A DNA stretch of 64,000 nt from Candidatus Saccharibacteria bacterium UBA6824 (GTDB taxonomy: Bacteria; Patescibacteriota; Saccharimonadia; Saccharimonadales; UBA10212). The notes below the pieces were generated by a model. The model worked only from the letters and a program-made list of their open reading frames with translations, had not been told where the DNA came from and ran no database searches. Positions 14,277 through 45,605 of the stretch are shown in pieces (positions within the stretch are counted from its first letter, which is position 1; each line of letters opens with the position of its first letter). The position numbers and the translations under genes are program-made. The DNA lies in assembly GCA_002452155.1 (NCBI GenBank), contig DKEK01000002.1, forward strand, positions 85,750 through 149,749. Reading direction: 5' to 3'.

Positions 14277-15536
14277 TTGATGAAGCATAAGCGTAATCAA
14301 TCGGGTTTTCATCATATTTTTTTGCTACTCGTGATTCTTGTTCTGGCCGTCGTCGGCTTCGTCGGCTATAGGGTGTTCAATAAAAACCACAGTTCCGGCG
14401 GCGGTAATTCGGGAACAAAAGCCGGCCTAAAATTGGTCAAGGGCGAAAATATCGATAATCAAGGCTGTAGCGGCTCCGGGCCAGTCATGTTCGGTACCAG
14501 CCCGATGGACCCTAAAGACGTTGGCGTGTTTCTACCACTTGGTTTGATGGTTGGCGCTCATGTGACGCCGATTGATCACATGTATTTCTCGCCGATTGAC
14601 TTTCACTCTGCCCGCGACACTTACGAGGTAAGGGCAATGGCCGATGGGCTCATTACCGCCATCAGCCAGCGGTCTCGGCAGGTAAATGACATTAATAATG
14701 GCGCGCCTAAACTGGCGGAGTACCAGCTCAAGTTTTGGTACAGCTGCACCTTCGCTAGTTACTATGACTTGATCACCAGTTTATCACCCAGGTTGCAATC
14801 GGAGTTCGAAGCTCACAAGGGGAGTGGCGGTAACGCCAGCGTTCAGGTCAAGGTTAAAGAGGGCGAAGTAGTAGGCCGGATCGGCGGCCAAACGCTTGAT
14901 TTCGCAGTTTATGATTACACAAAAATATTACCGGGCTTTATCGTACCCGAACATTATTTGGGAGAGTCATGGAAACTTCACGTTGTTAATCCGTTTCCGT
15001 ACTTTAAAGAACCGGTTAGAAGCCAGCTACTGGCTTTAGACCCCCGCCAAGCCGATCCCCGCGAAGGCAAAATCGATTATGACCAAGACGGCAAGCTGGT
15101 CGGCACGTGGTTTAAGGAAGGCAATAATGGCTTTGGCTCGAGCGGTGGGCAAAACCCGTCGCCCTGGCGGGCCCATCTGTCCTTTGTCTATGACGCTGTT
15201 GATCCGGCGTTGGTTGAAGTATCCATAGGCGATTACGGCGGACAATCCCAGCAGTTCGCCCTCATATCTAACGGGCCCGATCCGGCCACCATAGGCGTCG
15301 GCAACTTGGTCAAGTTCGAGCTGACCCAGATCGATCACTATCTTAGCGGCAGCGGCCAGCAGTGGGATAATATGCATGTTTATAGCGACATCAAAGGTCG
15401 GCCTGGTACGTACGTGCAGGGAGTGGCCCTGACGCAGATGACCGATAAACGCAAGCTCAAGTTCGAAGCCTTCCCGGGTAAAACTGCCGCACAGGTAACC
15501 GGCTTTACAACGGCCGCCCAAACCTACGAACGCTAG
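14277..15536 (+). CDS. Hypothetical secreted/membrane-anchored protein
   Basis: N-terminal TM (IFLLLVILVLAVVGFVGY); 419 aa with no recognised domain; followed by a T8 run. Confidence 0.4.
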   Translation: MMKHKRNQSGFHHIFLLLVILVLAVVGFVGYRVFNKNHSSGGGNSGTKAGLKLVKGENIDNQGCSGSGPVMFGTSPMDPKDVGVFLPLGLMVGAHVTPIDHMYFSPIDFHSARDTYEVRAMADGLITAISQRSRQVNDINNGAPKLAEYQLKFWYSCTFASYYDLITSLSPRLQSEFEAHKGSGGNASVQVKVKEGEVVGRIGGQTLDFAVYDYTKILPGFIVPEHYLGESWKLHVVNPFPYFKEPVRSQLLALDPRQADPREGKIDYDQDGKLVGTWFKEGNNGFGSSGGQNPSPWRAHLSFVYDAVDPALVEVSIGDYGGQSQQFALISNGPDPATIGVGNLVKFELTQIDHYLSGSGQQWDNMHVYSDIKGRPGTYVQGVALTQMTDKRKLKFEAFPGKTAAQVTGFTTAAQTYER

Positions 15537-15693
15537 AGGGCCTCGAAAAATCCTTTTTTTTGCTTGTGCTTGCATTAGTCTCAAGATAGTTCCAATATTG
15601 CACATCTCGCGATATGAAATTATCTGGTTGACTACCAAAGCGCCATTCATACCGGCAGCATATCATATATAATAAGCGTAACTGGAGTCTATC

Positions 15694-16785
15694 TTGAGGA
15701 AGATTTTTATTGTCGTAGCTGGTGGAAACGCTGATGCTCAGCGACATTTTGAAGACACTATTCAAAGAAAAAGGAATATTGCTGAGGTAAAACAATTTCT
15801 GCCACCCGAACAAGTAAATAATTTAGAAAATATCTACCACGGATCAGACTTTATTGTTTGGGGTTCTGTGCCTGGCACAATGAATGAACCGCGTTGGGAA
15901 AAAATGGATCCCGGAGACGTGGTACTTATCTACAATGGTGGCAGGATTCAGTTTGCCGGCGAAGTTGCCGCAAAAGTCCGCAGCAAAGACCTAGCAAGGT
16001 ATTTCTGGCGTGAAACCGAAGATCGTGAGACTTGGGAACTCATGTATTTTATAGTCAACGAGGAACGTGTCGATGTCCCTTTAGCAAAACTCAATCCGTT
16101 TTTTGGATATAGCGAAATATATGCACCGCGCGGGTTTACTCAAATCGACCAGGAGAAGGTAAAAACTTTTGCAGCAAATTACGGTGACATTCTAGGAGTG
16201 CTGAAGTCGCTCGAAAAAAACGAAGAAATTATTCCAGTGGCCCCAGTAAAAACACAAGTATTTGAAGAGGAAATCGAGCGGGCAACTACTGAGCATGACG
16301 AAATGCAGTGGAGGTTGATAAGGCTAGGCGAATTAGCGAAACTCGATATTTGGGTTCCGGCAAATGATCAAGGTAAGCAATTTGAGGGCAATAAGTTTCG
16401 TGAGCACGTCTTGCCGGAGTTCCAGCAGGGGATTGATGTGCCGCCAACCATTAAGAATATCGACGTAGTCTGGAAATTTGGCCCGTACTCAATCAAGTCA
16501 GCCTTCGAAATAGAGCATTCGACGTCAGTGTATTCGGGTATTTTGCGTCTCTCAGATTTAAGGACAGAAACACCTAACTCGACCTTTCCGTTATTTATCG
16601 TTGCTGACCAGGGACGTAAACGTAAGGTTTTGAATGAATTGCTACGACCGACTTTTTCTAGCCCGGCGTTGCGTTTAAACGAGGTCGTTAAGTATCTTAG
16701 CTACGACAATATTCGAGAAATTGATGGCTCAGCCAAAAGCGGCTTTAACCCAGAAGTTTTTCAAACTGTCGGGGTTTCACCTTAA
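15694..16785 (+). CDS. Hypothetical fusion: N-terminal PUA-like (EVE/ASCH-like) domain plus a C-terminal putative restriction-endonuclease-like domain; candidate modification-dependent nuclease
   Basis: The gene lies in a low-GC islet (about 42% against about 55% in the flanks). N-terminus: DFIVWGSVPG...WEKMDPGDVVLIYNGGRIQFAGEV, a PUA-like pattern. C-terminus: IDVVWKFGPYSIKSAFEIEHS, a D...ExE/H spacing reminiscent of PD-(D/E)xK. Confidence 0.4.
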   Translation: MRKIFIVVAGGNADAQRHFEDTIQRKRNIAEVKQFLPPEQVNNLENIYHGSDFIVWGSVPGTMNEPRWEKMDPGDVVLIYNGGRIQFAGEVAAKVRSKDLARYFWRETEDRETWELMYFIVNEERVDVPLAKLNPFFGYSEIYAPRGFTQIDQEKVKTFAANYGDILGVLKSLEKNEEIIPVAPVKTQVFEEEIERATTEHDEMQWRLIRLGELAKLDIWVPANDQGKQFEGNKFREHVLPEFQQGIDVPPTIKNIDVVWKFGPYSIKSAFEIEHSTSVYSGILRLSDLRTETPNSTFPLFIVADQGRKRKVLNELLRPTFSSPALRLNEVVKYLSYDNIREIDGSAKSGFNPEVFQTVGVSP

Positions 16786-16830
16786 GCCCAGAACTAACTT
16801 CCGAAAGCGTATAATCATTAGCATAAGGGG

Positions 16831-25509: not shown

Positions 25510-26070
25510 ATGCAGGTGCATATAATCGACGGCTGGTCAGAAGGCCCCCGGCATATGGCCGCGCTAGAGCAGGAGCTGTCACGGGCCGGCTTTAGCCTGA
25601 GCCAGGATAAAACAAAGGCCGACGTGATTATCGCTCATTCGGCAGGCTGGTACTTTCTGCCAAAAGATGACTCTAGCAAACTGATCGCTCATATCAACCC
25701 TCCGTATTGGCCTAATAGGCCAATATTGCTGGGGATGATCCGTAATGTGCTACTCGATATCCCCATGCAGCTCCGAAGCTGGGGCTGGAAAAGGCTGGCC
25801 GTCCACCGCCTGAAAAATATTTTTTATATTTTTATCCACCCGCTGCGGGGCCTCAGGATTTGGCGATCGCTCAAATCGGCTTTAGTCGAAAAAGATAAAA
25901 ACAAGAGAGTTTTAATTATGAGAAATAAAAGGGATTGCTTTTGCTCGCCAGAAATTAAAAGTTACCTAAAGTCAGTTAAAGGGGTGAAGATAGTTGAACT
26001 TCCAGGGTTGCACGAAGACTGCTGGTTCAACCCCAAACCGTATGTCGATTTGATCCTCAAAGAACTATAA
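25510..26070 (+). CDS. Hypothetical protein (possible alpha/beta-hydrolase-like fold)
   Basis: VIIAHSAGWYF resembles a GxSxG nucleophile elbow; 186 aa. Confidence 0.3.
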   Translation: MQVHIIDGWSEGPRHMAALEQELSRAGFSLSQDKTKADVIIAHSAGWYFLPKDDSSKLIAHINPPYWPNRPILLGMIRNVLLDIPMQLRSWGWKRLAVHRLKNIFYIFIHPLRGLRIWRSLKSALVEKDKNKRVLIMRNKRDCFCSPEIKSYLKSVKGVKIVELPGLHEDCWFNPKPYVDLILKEL

Positions 26071-35002: not shown

Positions 35003-35518
35003 TTATTCTGCGATAATATTTTTTGCCGCGGAAGCAAAAGCGGTATTTATGCTTTGAAGTTGTGTTTGATAGCTTGTGTCTGTGGTGCAGGGCTTATTCT
35101 TTATCCAGGTGCTATTGTAACCATAGTAGTAACCGCCAATCGTAGTGCCATCTGGGTATTTTTGCTGATAACTCTCACCACTCACTGGATCGGTGTAGTT
35201 TGAGGAGGTCCTTGCAAGGGATGCCAGGGGAGTTTGTCCGCTGTTTGCGCTTGAGGCTGCGCAATGACTAACTCCATCTAAAGATTTCAGCCCAAGCCAG
35301 ATTGTGTTGGGTTGTCCGTTGCTATCTTGTGAGCTAGTACTTACTACATAATATGCATCAGCAACATCATTTGAGAGTGGCAACTTAACCTTCCACTCGC
35401 TAATACTTAGGTATGACTGAGTTGGAGGTTTTTGCGTAGTTGTCTGTGAAGATGAGCCAGGGCTGGTTGTCTTCTTGTTGCTGTGTCTGTACACCAAAGT
35501 TCCACCTACCGCGAGCAT
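35003..35518 (-). CDS. Hypothetical secreted protein, paralogue of the adjacent upstream gene; the annotated start is probably truncated
   Basis: Shares the VYRHS(N/H)KKT...Ser/Thr-rich N-terminal region with the 35591..36277 gene. The TM helix GFGLIVALLVIVVVT lies in frame upstream of the first ATG with no canonical start between it and the upstream gene's TAA; an ATT at 35576-35578 is the only in-frame start-like codon. Confidence 0.4.
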   Translation of the reverse strand: MLAVGGTLVYRHSNKKTTSPGSSSQTTTQKPPTQSYLSISEWKVKLPLSNDVADAYYVVSTSSQDSNGQPNTIWLGLKSLDGVSHCAASSANSGQTPLASLARTSSNYTDPVSGESYQQKYPDGTTIGGYYYGYNSTWIKNKPCTTDTSYQTQLQSINTAFASAAKNIIAE

Positions 35519-35590
35519 TGTAACAACTACAATTACTAGGAGAGCTACAATTAGACCAAAGCCGTTATCCTTTTTAATACGATATCCCCA

Positions 35591-36277
35591 TTAATAACTT
35601 AAAGACTGCAGAATGGATATGGCTGTAGTGACCTCTGACTGTTTTGAGAAATTATCGTATGTACTATAGATAAGCACACCGCCGGCTTGTGCTGGTTTGA
35701 CGTAGTTGCCGCTCCATCTTACAACATAGCCAGTCTGAGACTTAGACGTGTAGTAAGGCCACGATTTTATGGGCTGCGCTTGGATATCCGTATATTCCGA
35801 AATACTTAGCGTTTGATATGGTTGCCCATTTACCGTCTGGCTATTAACCACAATGTATAAGTCCTTGCCATAGTTACTTGATGAGAGCTTCGTAACACCA
35901 TTGTAGGCACAACCATCACATCCAAAAGATGAATTACTATTTAACTTATAAACATCGTATTTGAGAGTAAAGTTGTTTGGTCCCTGAACAGAAACAGACT
36001 CCTTAGTATTGGTATCACGTGGATCCAAAGTATCCGTTAGTTGCCAATCGCTAGGATATCTAATACTGAACCCTTCAACACTTGACTTGTATGTCTTCCA
36101 ACCAGCATATGGATCAGCCGCCTGACTTTGAGTATTGCTGGAGGTATTACTAGCTGATGAGTTGTTTGTTGTCTTATGGCTATGTCTGTAAACAAACACT
36201 CCAGTTACTGCAACAACAGCAATAATTGCGACTGCAACAAGGGCTGGAATTAAGCCAAAGCCATCACTTTTCTTCAT
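35591..36277 (-). CDS. Hypothetical secreted protein with a pilin-like N-terminus
   Basis: MKKSDGFGLIPALVAVAIIAVVAV resembles a class-III (prepilin-like) signal, but has Pro at +5 instead of Glu. Confidence 0.45.
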   Translation of the reverse strand: MKKSDGFGLIPALVAVAIIAVVAVTGVFVYRHSHKTTNNSSASNTSSNTQSQAADPYAGWKTYKSSVEGFSIRYPSDWQLTDTLDPRDTNTKESVSVQGPNNFTLKYDVYKLNSNSSFGCDGCAYNGVTKLSSSNYGKDLYIVVNSQTVNGQPYQTLSISEYTDIQAQPIKSWPYYTSKSQTGYVVRWSGNYVKPAQAGGVLIYSTYDNFSKQSEVTTAISILQSLSY

Positions 36278-43392: not shown

Positions 43393-44310
43393 TTAAGACC
43401 GCTTCAACGCCCGTTCCAAAAGAACAGGACAAACAGCTTCAAAGCGGTGGTTATAACGAAAGACAAACTCCGAAACGTAAGAGTCCAAATACTTCGGAGA
43501 AACGTAGTGATAGGTCCCGTTGATAGAACGCTTTAGTTGCGACCAAAAGCCCTCTAAGTTGTTAGTATGTACGCCGTTTTCAACATAGTGCCCAACGCCA
43601 TGGTCTACAGTCAAGTGCTTGAAATCCCGGTGGGCATTTGTATATATTTTGCTCTTGTCAGTATGCAGAACAGCGTTAGGTTGTATGTTGGCCTTTAAGT
43701 AGGGCATAACTGTAAAGGCACTTGCACCGTCTACGACTTTGGCCTTTATTTTGCCACGCTTTTCAGCAATGCCGACAACCGGCACTTTATTATCATAGGA
43801 ATGAGCCTGTCGTCTGCGGCCACCAATATATGTTTCATCAGCTTCAACTACCCCAATCAATCTTTCAGCGTCCTGTTTCATGAGTAGGCGTATCTGTTTA
43901 GCCATGCGCCAAGCGGTTTTGTACGTTACGCCGAGGTGTCGCTCAAGTTCTTTGGCCGATACCCCGTTCTTAGCAACTGAAACTAAATAGATGGCATGAA
44001 ACCAGCTAGTTAGGGGAGTCCGGGAGCTACGGAATATCGTATTGGCTAGAGGGTACAACTGATAACCACAGTGCATACAAGCATATGACTGGCGTTTCTT
44101 GACCCGGTAGAACTTAGTTTCAGCCGCACACTTCGGACAGAACTTTAAGTCGCCGTAGCGGTTATCAAAGACGGCTTGCAGGCAAGCATTGTCGTCTGGA
44201 TATTCCGCTTGGAACTGCTTGTAAGTGTATCTCATACCTCTAATTGTACAGGCTAGATACTTGTCTGTCAAGGAATTAAGTAAGGAGTAAGTGTTGTACT
44301 TTTTGTTCAC
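43393..44310 (-). CDS. IS1595-family transposase (zinc-ribbon plus DDE domain)
   Basis: N-terminal C..C...C..C zinc ribbon (CPKCAA...CMHCGY) then the DDE region (VEADETYIGG...HTDKSKIY...NLEGFWSQLKR). Confidence 0.8.
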   Translation of the reverse strand: MNKKYNTYSLLNSLTDKYLACTIRGMRYTYKQFQAEYPDDNACLQAVFDNRYGDLKFCPKCAAETKFYRVKKRQSYACMHCGYQLYPLANTIFRSSRTPLTSWFHAIYLVSVAKNGVSAKELERHLGVTYKTAWRMAKQIRLLMKQDAERLIGVVEADETYIGGRRRQAHSYDNKVPVVGIAEKRGKIKAKVVDGASAFTVMPYLKANIQPNAVLHTDKSKIYTNAHRDFKHLTVDHGVGHYVENGVHTNNLEGFWSQLKRSINGTYHYVSPKYLDSYVSEFVFRYNHRFEAVCPVLLERALKRS

Positions 44311-45605
44311 TAATCGTCAAGTAAACCTACGTCTTTTAAACGTTTGTAGAAGAGTTTCCCCTGCAATCCAGTCTCAATTACTTCTTCCATATCACTATGA
44401 TTTTTTATGTAGTGACTTTCGCTGAAAGTTATGCCTACGCTTTCTTCGGGTTTGGTGTGACGCATTACCTCACGGCTGGACACTCGATGCTTATAAGGCA
44501 GTTTTTGGTCTTTACCATAATCTTTCCATGCATTAGGAGTCATGCCGGTAACACCAACCGTAATATCGCTAGTAACAATATCGTATCTGTCACCTACCGC
44601 TTTAATCTTGCTGTGAAATCTCTTATTTTCATTCACTTGAAAGTTTCTGGACTCATATCTTTTAAACAGAGCTACGACCTGTTCAGCGGTGCTGATACCT
44701 AGCCCTTCGCTTACTTTTGCAAGCTCACTGGCCGCCTTATCGCTATTGCCGGATATGGCTAGTCCAACGGCTTCTAGAGTTGAACTTGCAAGATTGTAGA
44801 GCTGTTCAGCACGAGCTGGATAGTCTGGAGTACGGCCACTTTGTTTGAACGCCACCAGCAACTCAGGCACTAATTCAAATGGCAGAAGTGGGGTAAAACC
44901 TTTTTCGAACCCCTTGACGAATGGTCCACTGATTTGTGGACCATCAAGTTTACGGTTGTGGATACTTACCACAAACTTTTTAAAACTTGTTCCTTGCACC
45001 CACTTAGAAAATGCGTCTGACCGCACTCCGATAAAGTCGGCTATGGACGGAAGGCTGAATAAGAAATAGCTTTTTACTTCGACTCCCGCCACAACGTCAG
45101 TTTTGACCTCAACCAGCCTAATCTCACTGGGGAAAACTCCGGCAGGAACTTTAGGGCTTCTAGTGGGGCCTATGGCTTGTTCTATGGCTCCCTCAACATT
45201 AACTGGCTCATCGAGTACTTCCACTACCGCTTCGGGTTCTGACATAATCCACTCCTTAATACCCAGAAGCTTCTTAATTAGGTCTTCTTCATTCTCTTTA
45301 TCTGTTTCAACGGCTACGTAGCGACCAAAAATGCCATCAGCTACCATTCGTTTTGGCTCAGCAGAATTATCATAAAAGACATTGGCGTTTTTTAGCTCCG
45401 GGACTGTACTATAAATCCTAGCCTTCAGTTCATTTATATAGGCCTCGACTACCTTGTTTGGTAGAAAACATTGCTGACCTCTTAATGCAAAAGCCCTAAT
45501 TTTACCAGCCTTCTGGAAGCGATAAGTACGTTGGCGATAGAAGTATTTTGCGCCTAGCTCGGCCTCAAGCTCAACGGCGGTCATCAGTTTATACATATTA
45601 CTCAT
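44310..45605 (-). CDS. Hypothetical 431-aa protein with an N-terminal excisionase/MerR-like HTH (HTH_17-like), translationally coupled to the transposase
   Basis: LMTAVELEAELGAKYFYRQRTYRFQKAGKIRAF fits the HTH_17 pattern. A one-nucleotide overlap joins its stop to the transposase start. Low GC. No other domain recognised. Confidence 0.45.
   Translation of the reverse strand: MSNMYKLMTAVELEAELGAKYFYRQRTYRFQKAGKIRAFALRGQQCFLPNKVVEAYINELKARIYSTVPELKNANVFYDNSAEPKRMVADGIFGRYVAVETDKENEEDLIKKLLGIKEWIMSEPEAVVEVLDEPVNVEGAIEQAIGPTRSPKVPAGVFPSEIRLVEVKTDVVAGVEVKSYFLFSLPSIADFIGVRSDAFSKWVQGTSFKKFVVSIHNRKLDGPQISGPFVKGFEKGFTPLLPFELVPELLVAFKQSGRTPDYPARAEQLYNLASSTLEAVGLAISGNSDKAASELAKVSEGLGISTAEQVVALFKRYESRNFQVNENKRFHSKIKAVGDRYDIVTSDITVGVTGMTPNAWKDYGKDQKLPYKHRVSSREVMRHTKPEESVGITFSESHYIKNHSDMEEVIETGLQGKLFYKRLKDVGLLDD

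Follow-up and report, generated by a model that had tools for sequence, protein, structure and literature searches.

What does a single gene of low GC (guanine plus cytosine) content, set among housekeeping genes, do in the genome of a Saccharibacteria representative? The question is raised by a 64-kb stretch of Candidatus Saccharibacteria bacterium UBA6824 (assembly GCA_002452155.1, contig DKEK01000002.1, positions 85,750 to 149,749), hereafter the window, which contains a short low-GC islet with one gene encoding a protein of 363 amino acids (aa). An initial annotation, made from the sequence letters alone, had read this protein as a modified-base reader fused to a nuclease, that is, a single-chain type IV restriction enzyme. 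This reading is supported here by sequence comparison and structural models, with both domain calls confirmed independently, and we consider that the gene product is probably a single-chain, modification-dependent (type IV) DNA endonuclease, its activity being a prediction. The putative modified-base sensor and the nuclease are united in one polypeptide, without any cognate methyltransferase in the window.

The N-terminal reader domain

The N-terminal domain has a PUA-like beta-barrel fold of the YTH/EVE type, which superposes on solved members and carries the motif VW56G..PG61.....W68.KM.PGD75VVLIY80..GRIQFAGEV from which the initial annotation had recognized it. There was one meaningful phmmer match among the PDB sequences, the N-terminal domain of Thermococcus gammatolerans McrB (TgMcrB-N, 6p0f; E 1.2e-3, residues 3–146), and hmmsearch with a profile of 20 diverse copies taken from different fusion contexts recovered the same structure at E 5.2e-6, together with full-length TgMcrB (6ut5, E 1.8e-4). 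The fold relatives include EVE, ASCH, and YTH proteins as well as the EVE-HNH enzyme VcaM4I, and the characterized members of this fold clade read modified bases. Membership in one of the curated families was not recovered: scanning residues 1–180 against a local Pfam copy gave no EVE, YTH, ASCH, or other match even at E ≤ 10, whereas the TgMcrB-N profile match is significant. By sequence, the domain is a divergent branch without a model of its own in the Pfam copy scanned.

Among 32 diverse N-terminal domains, W56, G57, and W105 are invariant, W114 is conserved in 96%, and H18, T22, N64, D75, K94, and Y118 in 84–93%. The tryptophans W56, W105, and W114, which align with aromatic residues of TgMcrB (Table 1), are candidates for an aromatic cage that would hold a flipped modified base.

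The C-terminal nuclease domain

The C-terminal domain belongs to the Pfam family NmeDI_C (PF27126), found as a precomputed tag on the identical public protein and on all 120 homologs among the matches listed, and the PADLOC model REase_II (type II REase) matches its residues 252–322 (E 3.7e-5). Searching the PDB sequences with a profile of this domain returned only chance kallikrein matches, hence no solved structure is close to NmeDI_C in sequence. The first full-length AlphaFold2 model had a predicted local distance difference test score (pLDDT) below 50 over residues 218–277, and for this reason the domain was re-modeled with a more diverse alignment (26 sequences, 34–62% identical to the window protein), reaching a pLDDT of 94.8 and a predicted template modeling score of 0.90. 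In this model a helix (200–214) is followed by three strands (218–220, 258–262, and 266–273), a second helix (280–292), and a last strand (300–304), and this modeled alpha-beta-beta-beta-alpha-beta order is the one of the classical PD-(D/E)XK core. Its structural neighbors (scores in brackets) are N.BspD6I (8.1), NgoMIV (8.0), the small subunit of R.BspD6I (7.8), and FokI (7.5), followed by AF1548, NucS, BsaWI, SdaI, PaqCI, EcoT38I, BstEII, Cfr10I, and SgrAI. The divergent PD-(D/E)XK-like core that had been suspected from the letters is thus backed by a confident model with canonical topology and by the Pfam tag.

The motif NID257VVWKFGPYSIKSAFE272IE274HS is present, with a D257–E272 spacing of exactly 14 residues. 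In 78 diverse C-terminal domains, D257, E272, R285, and D288 are conserved in 100%, E274 in 98%, D225 in 94%, and H201 in 92%. Of the D-14-ExE/H signature first put forward, D257, E272, and E274 stand, while H275 is not conserved in the wider family. In the model, the predicted catalytic site is D257/E272/E274, a D...ExE arrangement at the canonical positions. The same D...ExE arrangement is found in BamHI, an active enzyme. Taking both domains together, W56, G57, D75, D257, E272, and E274 are not conserved by chance: they are kept in 93–100% of diverse homologs in different domain contexts.

Modularity of reader and nuclease

A HMMER search of 1.84 billion representative proteins gave 3000 matches at E ≤ 1e-3, most of them spanning only one half of the protein. 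Elsewhere, the N-terminal domain is fused to HNH nucleases, NucS_C-type PD-(D/E)XK nucleases, McrB-type AAA_5 ATPases, or ParB_N, and an "AAA family ATPase" encoded by an Archaeoglobus provirus carries it as well. One such relative is a 425-aa "HNH endonuclease" with the same YTH-like N-terminal domain, encoded on the Bacillus mycoides plasmid NZ_CP036038 (101516–102793) and flanked there by a restriction gene of the Sau3AI family and a dcm methyltransferase gene; the plasmid is conjugative and its source cultivable.

The partners of the C-terminal domain are EVE, Mrr_N, HEPN_Swt1, TPR, and N-terminal modules of unknown type. We sorted 48 diverse NmeDI_C proteins, each with 120 or more residues ahead of the nuclease, by their N-terminal parts. 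Fourteen of them form the biggest cluster, which is remotely related to the reader of the window protein (hhalign E 6e-5), six proteins have the window protein's own type, and seven have Mrr_N; a cluster of four includes one member with a weak Pfam EVE match, and a further protein (P0265) has a clear one. The PADLOC REase model, 351 positions long like R.NmeDI, matches all these proteins over the C-terminal half only. From these partners and partial matches, NmeDI_C is a cleavage module joined to interchangeable DNA-recognition modules, mostly of the modification-sensor type. Judging from the homologs, reader and nuclease are both evolutionarily mobile modules.

Short open reading frames (ORFs) that seem to encode NmeDI_C alone are preceded by an overlapping EVE or unknown ORF, in contexts resembling defense islands. 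In two of these loci (L136, 3496–4597, and L137, 3472–4576) the overlap with the upstream EVE or unknown ORF is 29–50 nt, and each pair is either a reader gene and a nuclease gene that have been split or the product of frameshift errors of long-read assemblies. Their neighbors include DpnII/MboI fragments, an MmeI-type methylase, a TIR protein, and a reverse transcriptase-protease gene.

Distribution and genomic neighborhoods

The same two-domain protein is found in other Saccharibacteria with 77–87% identity. Scanning 185,579 species genomes with exact conserved-peptide patterns, a procedure that undercounts, gave 44 loci, all in metagenome-assembled genomes (MAGs), at 47–84% identity. They belong to Saccharibacteria and numerous further lineages of Patescibacteria, as well as to Acidobacteriota, Omnitrophota, Verrucomicrobiia, Planctomycetia, Gammaproteobacteria, and Actinomycetota. 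The family is scattered over at least seven phyla (47–87% identity). The GC content of the gene is below that of its flanks in 40 of the 47 loci whose neighborhoods were compared.

No neighbor family is common to more than six of these 47 loci, and neither an ATPase nor a McrC gene is conserved among the neighborhoods. A DNA methyltransferase lies beside the gene in a single locus (L026 4829–5959, a C5 DNA_methylase, E 8e-90, directly upstream), which either represents an exception with type II-like logic or indicates that the reader tolerates 5-methylcytosine (5mC). The initial annotation had pointed out the lack of a partner methyltransferase or ATPase, and this is confirmed for the window as well as for 46 of the 47 homologous loci. 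Some relatives adjoin Cas1-like (by inspection of the sequence), IS110, TIR, or retron-type genes.

The gene is placed next to a G5 gene in four Saccharibacteria loci. The copy beside the G5 gene of another Saccharimonadales MAG (L044 6001–7047) shares just 47% identity with the window protein, compared with 64% for the nearby DEAD helicase and with 65–67% for the Acidobacteriota copies of the nuclease, which indicates horizontal exchange or replacement at the locus. Sequence identities of this kind suggest either that a foreign allele has replaced the resident one or that the site next to the G5 gene is a hotspot of integration. Overall, the gene is solitary and patchily and horizontally distributed. 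A search for empty sites found 80 metagenome loci with relatives of the upstream gene (≤74% identity) from which both the nuclease gene and the other neighbors are absent; with synteny lost in these loci, the comparison is uninformative. In a phage collection, the only homolog was an N-domain-ATPase protein of an archaeal provirus.

Two further genes recur beside the homologs (Table 1). One encodes a MazG-like pyrophosphohydrolase (PF12643, E 7.5e-21), near the homolog in six loci, whose product might clear modified deoxynucleoside triphosphates and in this way keep the host DNA free of the mark read by the nuclease. The other, directly downstream in three Patescibacteria-like loci, encodes a protein of 233 aa that carries an HNH motif in its C-terminal part and may represent another type IV-like nuclease, arranged in tandem with the first.

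The gene and its islet in the window

The drop from about 55 to about 42% GC described in the initial annotation is confirmed by a 300-bp profile, which goes from 0.55–0.56 (15100–15549) to 0.38–0.46 in the islet, and only 2.6% of the windows of equal length are equally low or lower in GC. The tetranucleotide distance of the islet from the whole window lies at the 95.5th percentile. The GC content at third codon positions is 0.42 in the islet gene, 0.60 in the upstream gene, 0.49 in the downstream gene, and 0.64 in the DEAD helicase. The dip is real but not unique, as two other stretches, at ~34.6–35.9 kb and ~42–44.6 kb, are more deviant. The second of these carries an IS1595 transposase, and for this reason low GC can be taken as a mark of foreign DNA in this genome. 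The transposase gene (43393–44310, minus strand; DDE_Tnp_IS1595, E 1e-36, plus a zinc ribbon) adjoins a gene for a 431-aa protein without family (44310–45605, minus strand), and the pair is placed between pth-like and DprA-like genes, both identified by sequence inspection only. The most deviant composition of the window, with GC down to 41%, is found at 35003–36277 (minus strand), where two small Ser/Thr-rich anchored proteins are encoded, one with a weak PsbP_2 match.

The islet holds one gene, as first annotated, and the public gene calls on identical contigs have the same 363-aa product with the same boundaries; the identical protein (P0001, 100% identity) is present on eight public contigs. 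The promoter-like site upstream is weak evidence, because the scanned region has four such sites where 2.6 are expected. The upstream neighbor encodes a 419-aa anchored or secreted protein with an N-terminal hydrophobic anchor, and the downstream one a G5 plus DUF3761 protein. A possible HNH-gene remnant in the upstream spacer (15629–15570, minus strand) was discarded, being a 20-aa match at E 0.16, not significant; the source of this echo is the N-terminal "ILSYREMC" motif of the 233-aa HNH protein.

Table 1. Positions of the features in the window and of the recurrent neighbor genes in homologous loci.
Feature	Sequence	Position	Strand	Remarks
Low-GC islet	Window	15537..16800	none	43.4% GC vs. 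50.6% in the window
Promoter-like TTCATA-16-TATAAT	Window	15646..15673	+	10/12 matches; consensus match only
Shine-Dalgarno-like GGAG	Window	15684..15687	+	6 nt before the TTG start; read directly from the sequence
Reader-nuclease gene (predicted)	Window	15694..16785	+	363 aa, TTG start, stop codon 16783–16785; YTH/EVE-like reader plus NmeDI_C nuclease
PUA-like domain, YTH/EVE clade, TgMcrB-N type	Window	15694..16143	+	aa 1–150
W56 codon, first candidate cage residue	Window	15859..15861	+	100% conserved; aligns with TgMcrB W53; invariant G57 next to it
W105 codon, second candidate cage residue	Window	16006..16008	+	100% conserved; aligns with TgMcrB W115
W114 codon, third candidate cage residue	Window	16033..16035	+	96% conserved; profile-aligned with TgMcrB F121
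Helical linker	Window	16144..16278	+	aa 151–195; helices 153–163, 166–174, and 188–195 in the full-length model; conservation lower
NmeDI_C (PF27126) PD-(D/E)XK-type nuclease domain	Window	16279..16782	+	aa 196–363
D257 codon, predicted catalytic Asp	Window	16462..16464	+	100% conserved; one residue before the modeled second core strand
E272-I273-E274 codons, ExE in place of (D/E)xK	Window	16507..16515	+	E272 inside the modeled third core strand; E274 one residue past its end
MazG-like gene directly before the reader-nuclease gene	L033	5642–5992
	L037	5623–5970
	L038	5642–5992
	L042	5649–6002
	L048	5645–5992
MazG-like gene upstream of homolog	L026	3249–3668		~2.3 kb upstream
233-aa HNH-motif protein	L034	7112–7810
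	L036	6999–7700
	L037	7113–7814

Proposed mechanism and the base that is read

In the mechanism that we propose, the N-terminal domain would bind DNA and flip the modified base into the pocket lined by W56, W105, and W114, while the C-terminal domain, held by the helical linker, would bind a divalent metal through D257/E272/E274 and cut the DNA backbone. By analogy with R.NmeDI and the cleavage domains of FokI and BspD6I, the enzyme would probably cut a short, constant number of nucleotides away from the modified base and probably require dimerization or two sites. The host DNA would escape cleavage because it lacks the modification that is read.

The identity of this modification is the weakest step of the mechanism. 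The mark may be N6-methyladenine (6mA), a tentative assignment by analogy that could well be wrong, because TgMcrB-N, the closest solved relative, is reported to prefer DNA carrying 6mA, which is targeted by the YTH fold of TgMcrB (PMC7680126, PMC7544203); the deposited DNA complex of this protein has inconsistencies (PMC7544203). Two relatives that coexist with C5 methyltransferases, the one in L026 and the one on the Bacillus plasmid, weakly support 6mA. As possible marks we also consider 5mC, 5-hydroxymethylcytosine (5hmC), and N4-methylcytosine. The most specific version of the proposal, a widespread and recently mobile single-chain 6mA-dependent enzyme that would cut at fixed distances on both sides, in the manner of NmeDI, and release short fragments, we regard as unlikely.

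Several observations weigh against a modification-dependent defense enzyme. The 6mA preference is taken from just one relative, which is 21% identical. When the full protein was scanned, the Pfam copy (which lacks PF27126) and NCBIfam gave no model for either domain, the sole Pfam line, PfUIS3 (E 0.14), being noise. The lysine of the canonical catalytic motif is absent, with E274 in its place, and none is conserved elsewhere in the 78 C-terminal domains. The gene is surrounded by housekeeping genes in the window, outside any defense island, and its 62–68% identity across phyla is unusually high for a defense gene. Finally, a scan of IMG/VR viral contigs found no relatives, and plasmids had single-domain relatives only, never the same two-domain protein.

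Alternative functions

Could the protein rather maintain the genome of its own host? As a repair nuclease, it would use its reader to sense damage or aberrant alkylation of a base in the host DNA, and its nuclease domain would introduce a nick next to that base, as repair nucleases of the NucS/EndoMS type do. A very high conservation (62–87% across phyla) would fit this role, and so would the retention of the gene in the very small genomes of Patescibacteria amid housekeeping genes, as seen in the window, the adjoining G5 gene in the four Saccharibacteria loci, the MazG-like, nucleotide-sanitizing gene close upstream in six loci and abutting in five, and the presence of NucS among the structural neighbors. 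Such a function is nevertheless improbable, given that the exact-pattern scan, undercount as it is, found the gene in only 44 of ~185,000 species genomes, that its phylogeny is incongruent with that of the species (a syntenic Saccharimonadales copy being more distant than those of Acidobacteriota), that its GC falls under that of the flanks in most loci, and that the sibling architectures, HNH and McrB fusions, are typical of restriction.

An N-terminal domain reading an unmodified sequence would instead make the protein a type II-like, sequence-specific endonuclease, with an unlinked methyltransferase protecting the host as M.NmeDI does for R.NmeDI. The family of the C-terminal domain is in fact named after this true type II enzyme (PMC2095814), a plasmid homolog of the domain is annotated as "type II restriction endonuclease," L026 has its C5 DNA methylase directly upstream, and the host genome was examined over 64 kb only. 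We find this distinctly improbable, since the PADLOC model matched only at its C-terminal core (positions 237–308 of 351) and the N-terminal halves are unrelated, the characterized members of the reader's fold clade recognize modified bases, and all but one of the 47 loci lack an adjacent methyltransferase. No ORF of the window has a methyltransferase motif either; one candidate with "NPPY" (25510–26070) was rejected because motif I is missing and the sequence looks like that of a hydrolase.

The substrate might also be RNA, the YTH-like domain reading N6-methyladenosine or another mark in tRNA, rRNA, or phage RNA and the C-terminal domain cleaving, or merely binding, the RNA. Eukaryotic YTH domains do read this mark in RNA, the YTH-like domains of CoCoNuT McrBC systems have been proposed as modified-RNA sensors (PMC11090510), and one NmeDI_C protein has a HEPN_Swt1 domain. 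We consider an RNA target very improbable, as TgMcrB-N, the closest relative, reportedly binds RNA poorly (PMC7544203), PD-(D/E)XK restriction-type domains and NmeDI are DNases, and the sibling fusions use DNA-acting HNH and McrB modules. A catalytically dead protein that only binds or regulates modified DNA is equally hard to credit: the (D/E)xK position lacks a conserved lysine and several PUA-PD-(D/E)XK candidates were very weakly active in vitro (PMC6765204), but D257, E272, and E274 are kept at the canonical metal-binding positions in 98–100% of the 78 diverse domains, and the enzyme after which the domain is named, R.NmeDI, has nuclease activity (PMC2095814).

Significance

If the type IV endonuclease reading is correct, a compact (363 aa) and ATP-independent family would be added to the small set of modification-dependent nucleases, and it would be among the very few candidates that read 6mA by a YTH-type pocket, as opposed to the winged-helix sensors of DpnI-like enzymes. 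Modification-dependent enzymes are useful reagents for mapping DNA modifications, and an enzyme reading 6mA would be the adenine-methylation counterpart of MspJI/AbaSI and a possible 6mA-mapping tool. It would also allow Saccharibacteria to tell methylated host or phage DNA from their own. More broadly, bacteria of the candidate phyla radiation, with genomes of ~1 Mb, would keep type IV defense genes and exchange them with soil Acidobacteriota and other phyla, and NmeDI_C is documented as a general cleavage module joined to different modification sensors. No new category of system is opened by these results.

Comparison with known systems

The reader-nuclease design is already known. Experiments have demonstrated modification dependence for proteins with a PUA-superfamily sensor, an HNH or PD-(D/E)XK nuclease, and no nearby methyltransferase (Lutz et al., 2019, PMC6765204; Pastor et al., 2021, PMC7897488), and TgMcrB YTH-domain homologs fused to PD(D/E)XK nucleases were reported by Bell, Wolf and Koonin (2020, PMC7641849), so the design of the window protein is not new. 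The initial annotation had expected a probably undescribed family, which goes too far in view of the Pfam family of the C-terminal domain and the fusions in PMC7641849 and PMC6765204.

In TgMcrB (PDB 6P0F/6P0G), the reader sits on an AAA+ GTPase and the system needs a separate McrC nuclease (McrBC type IV), whereas the window protein has the reader directly on the nuclease, and neither the gene nor its surroundings encode an ATPase or McrC. The absence of an AAA+ domain and of any McrC or ATPase gene rules out membership in McrBC. Among the single-chain enzymes, VcaM4I and TspA15I are EVE-HNH proteins, YenY4I is PUA-DUF3427-PD-(D/E)XK, and MspJI is SRA-like plus PD-(D/E)XK. The reader of the window protein belongs to another subfamily, TgMcrB-type and YTH-like, without a Pfam EVE match, and its nuclease is NmeDI_C with D...ExE, compared with the HNH or DUF3883/Mrr-like nucleases of that group. 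Those enzymes read 5mC or 5hmC, whereas the window protein, by analogy with TgMcrB-N, may read 6mA.

The type II enzyme R.NmeDI of Neisseria meningitidis, (12/7)RCCGGY(7/12), cuts on both sides of its site, is a tetramer, and needs two sites (PMC2095814). The window protein shares with it the Pfam NmeDI_C module, the C-terminal position of the nuclease, and a similar size (351 vs. 363 aa), and this shared layout suggests that the cuts lie away from the bound site, on either side of it, and depend on oligomers. They differ in that the gene of R.NmeDI overlaps that of its cognate C5 methyltransferase and the enzyme cuts sites that are unmethylated, whereas the window gene has no methyltransferase adjacent to it; moreover, the N-terminal half of the NmeDI-length PADLOC model, a proxy for the NmeDI sequence, does not match the window protein, which does not fit a type II restriction-modification system of the NmeDI type.

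A precedent is found in the fusions of Bell et al. (PMC7641849), which have the same YTH-like plus PD(D/E)XK architecture. These were a one-sentence computational mention, with no family definition, catalytic residues, spread, or assay, and such domains were described there as rare and mostly archaeal, whereas the family of the window protein is bacterial and occurs in many phyla. What is new here is the definition of the family, a TgMcrB-type reader plus NmeDI_C, with its predicted catalytic and pocket residues, its bacterial breadth, especially in Patescibacteria and Acidobacteriota, and its unusually high conservation.

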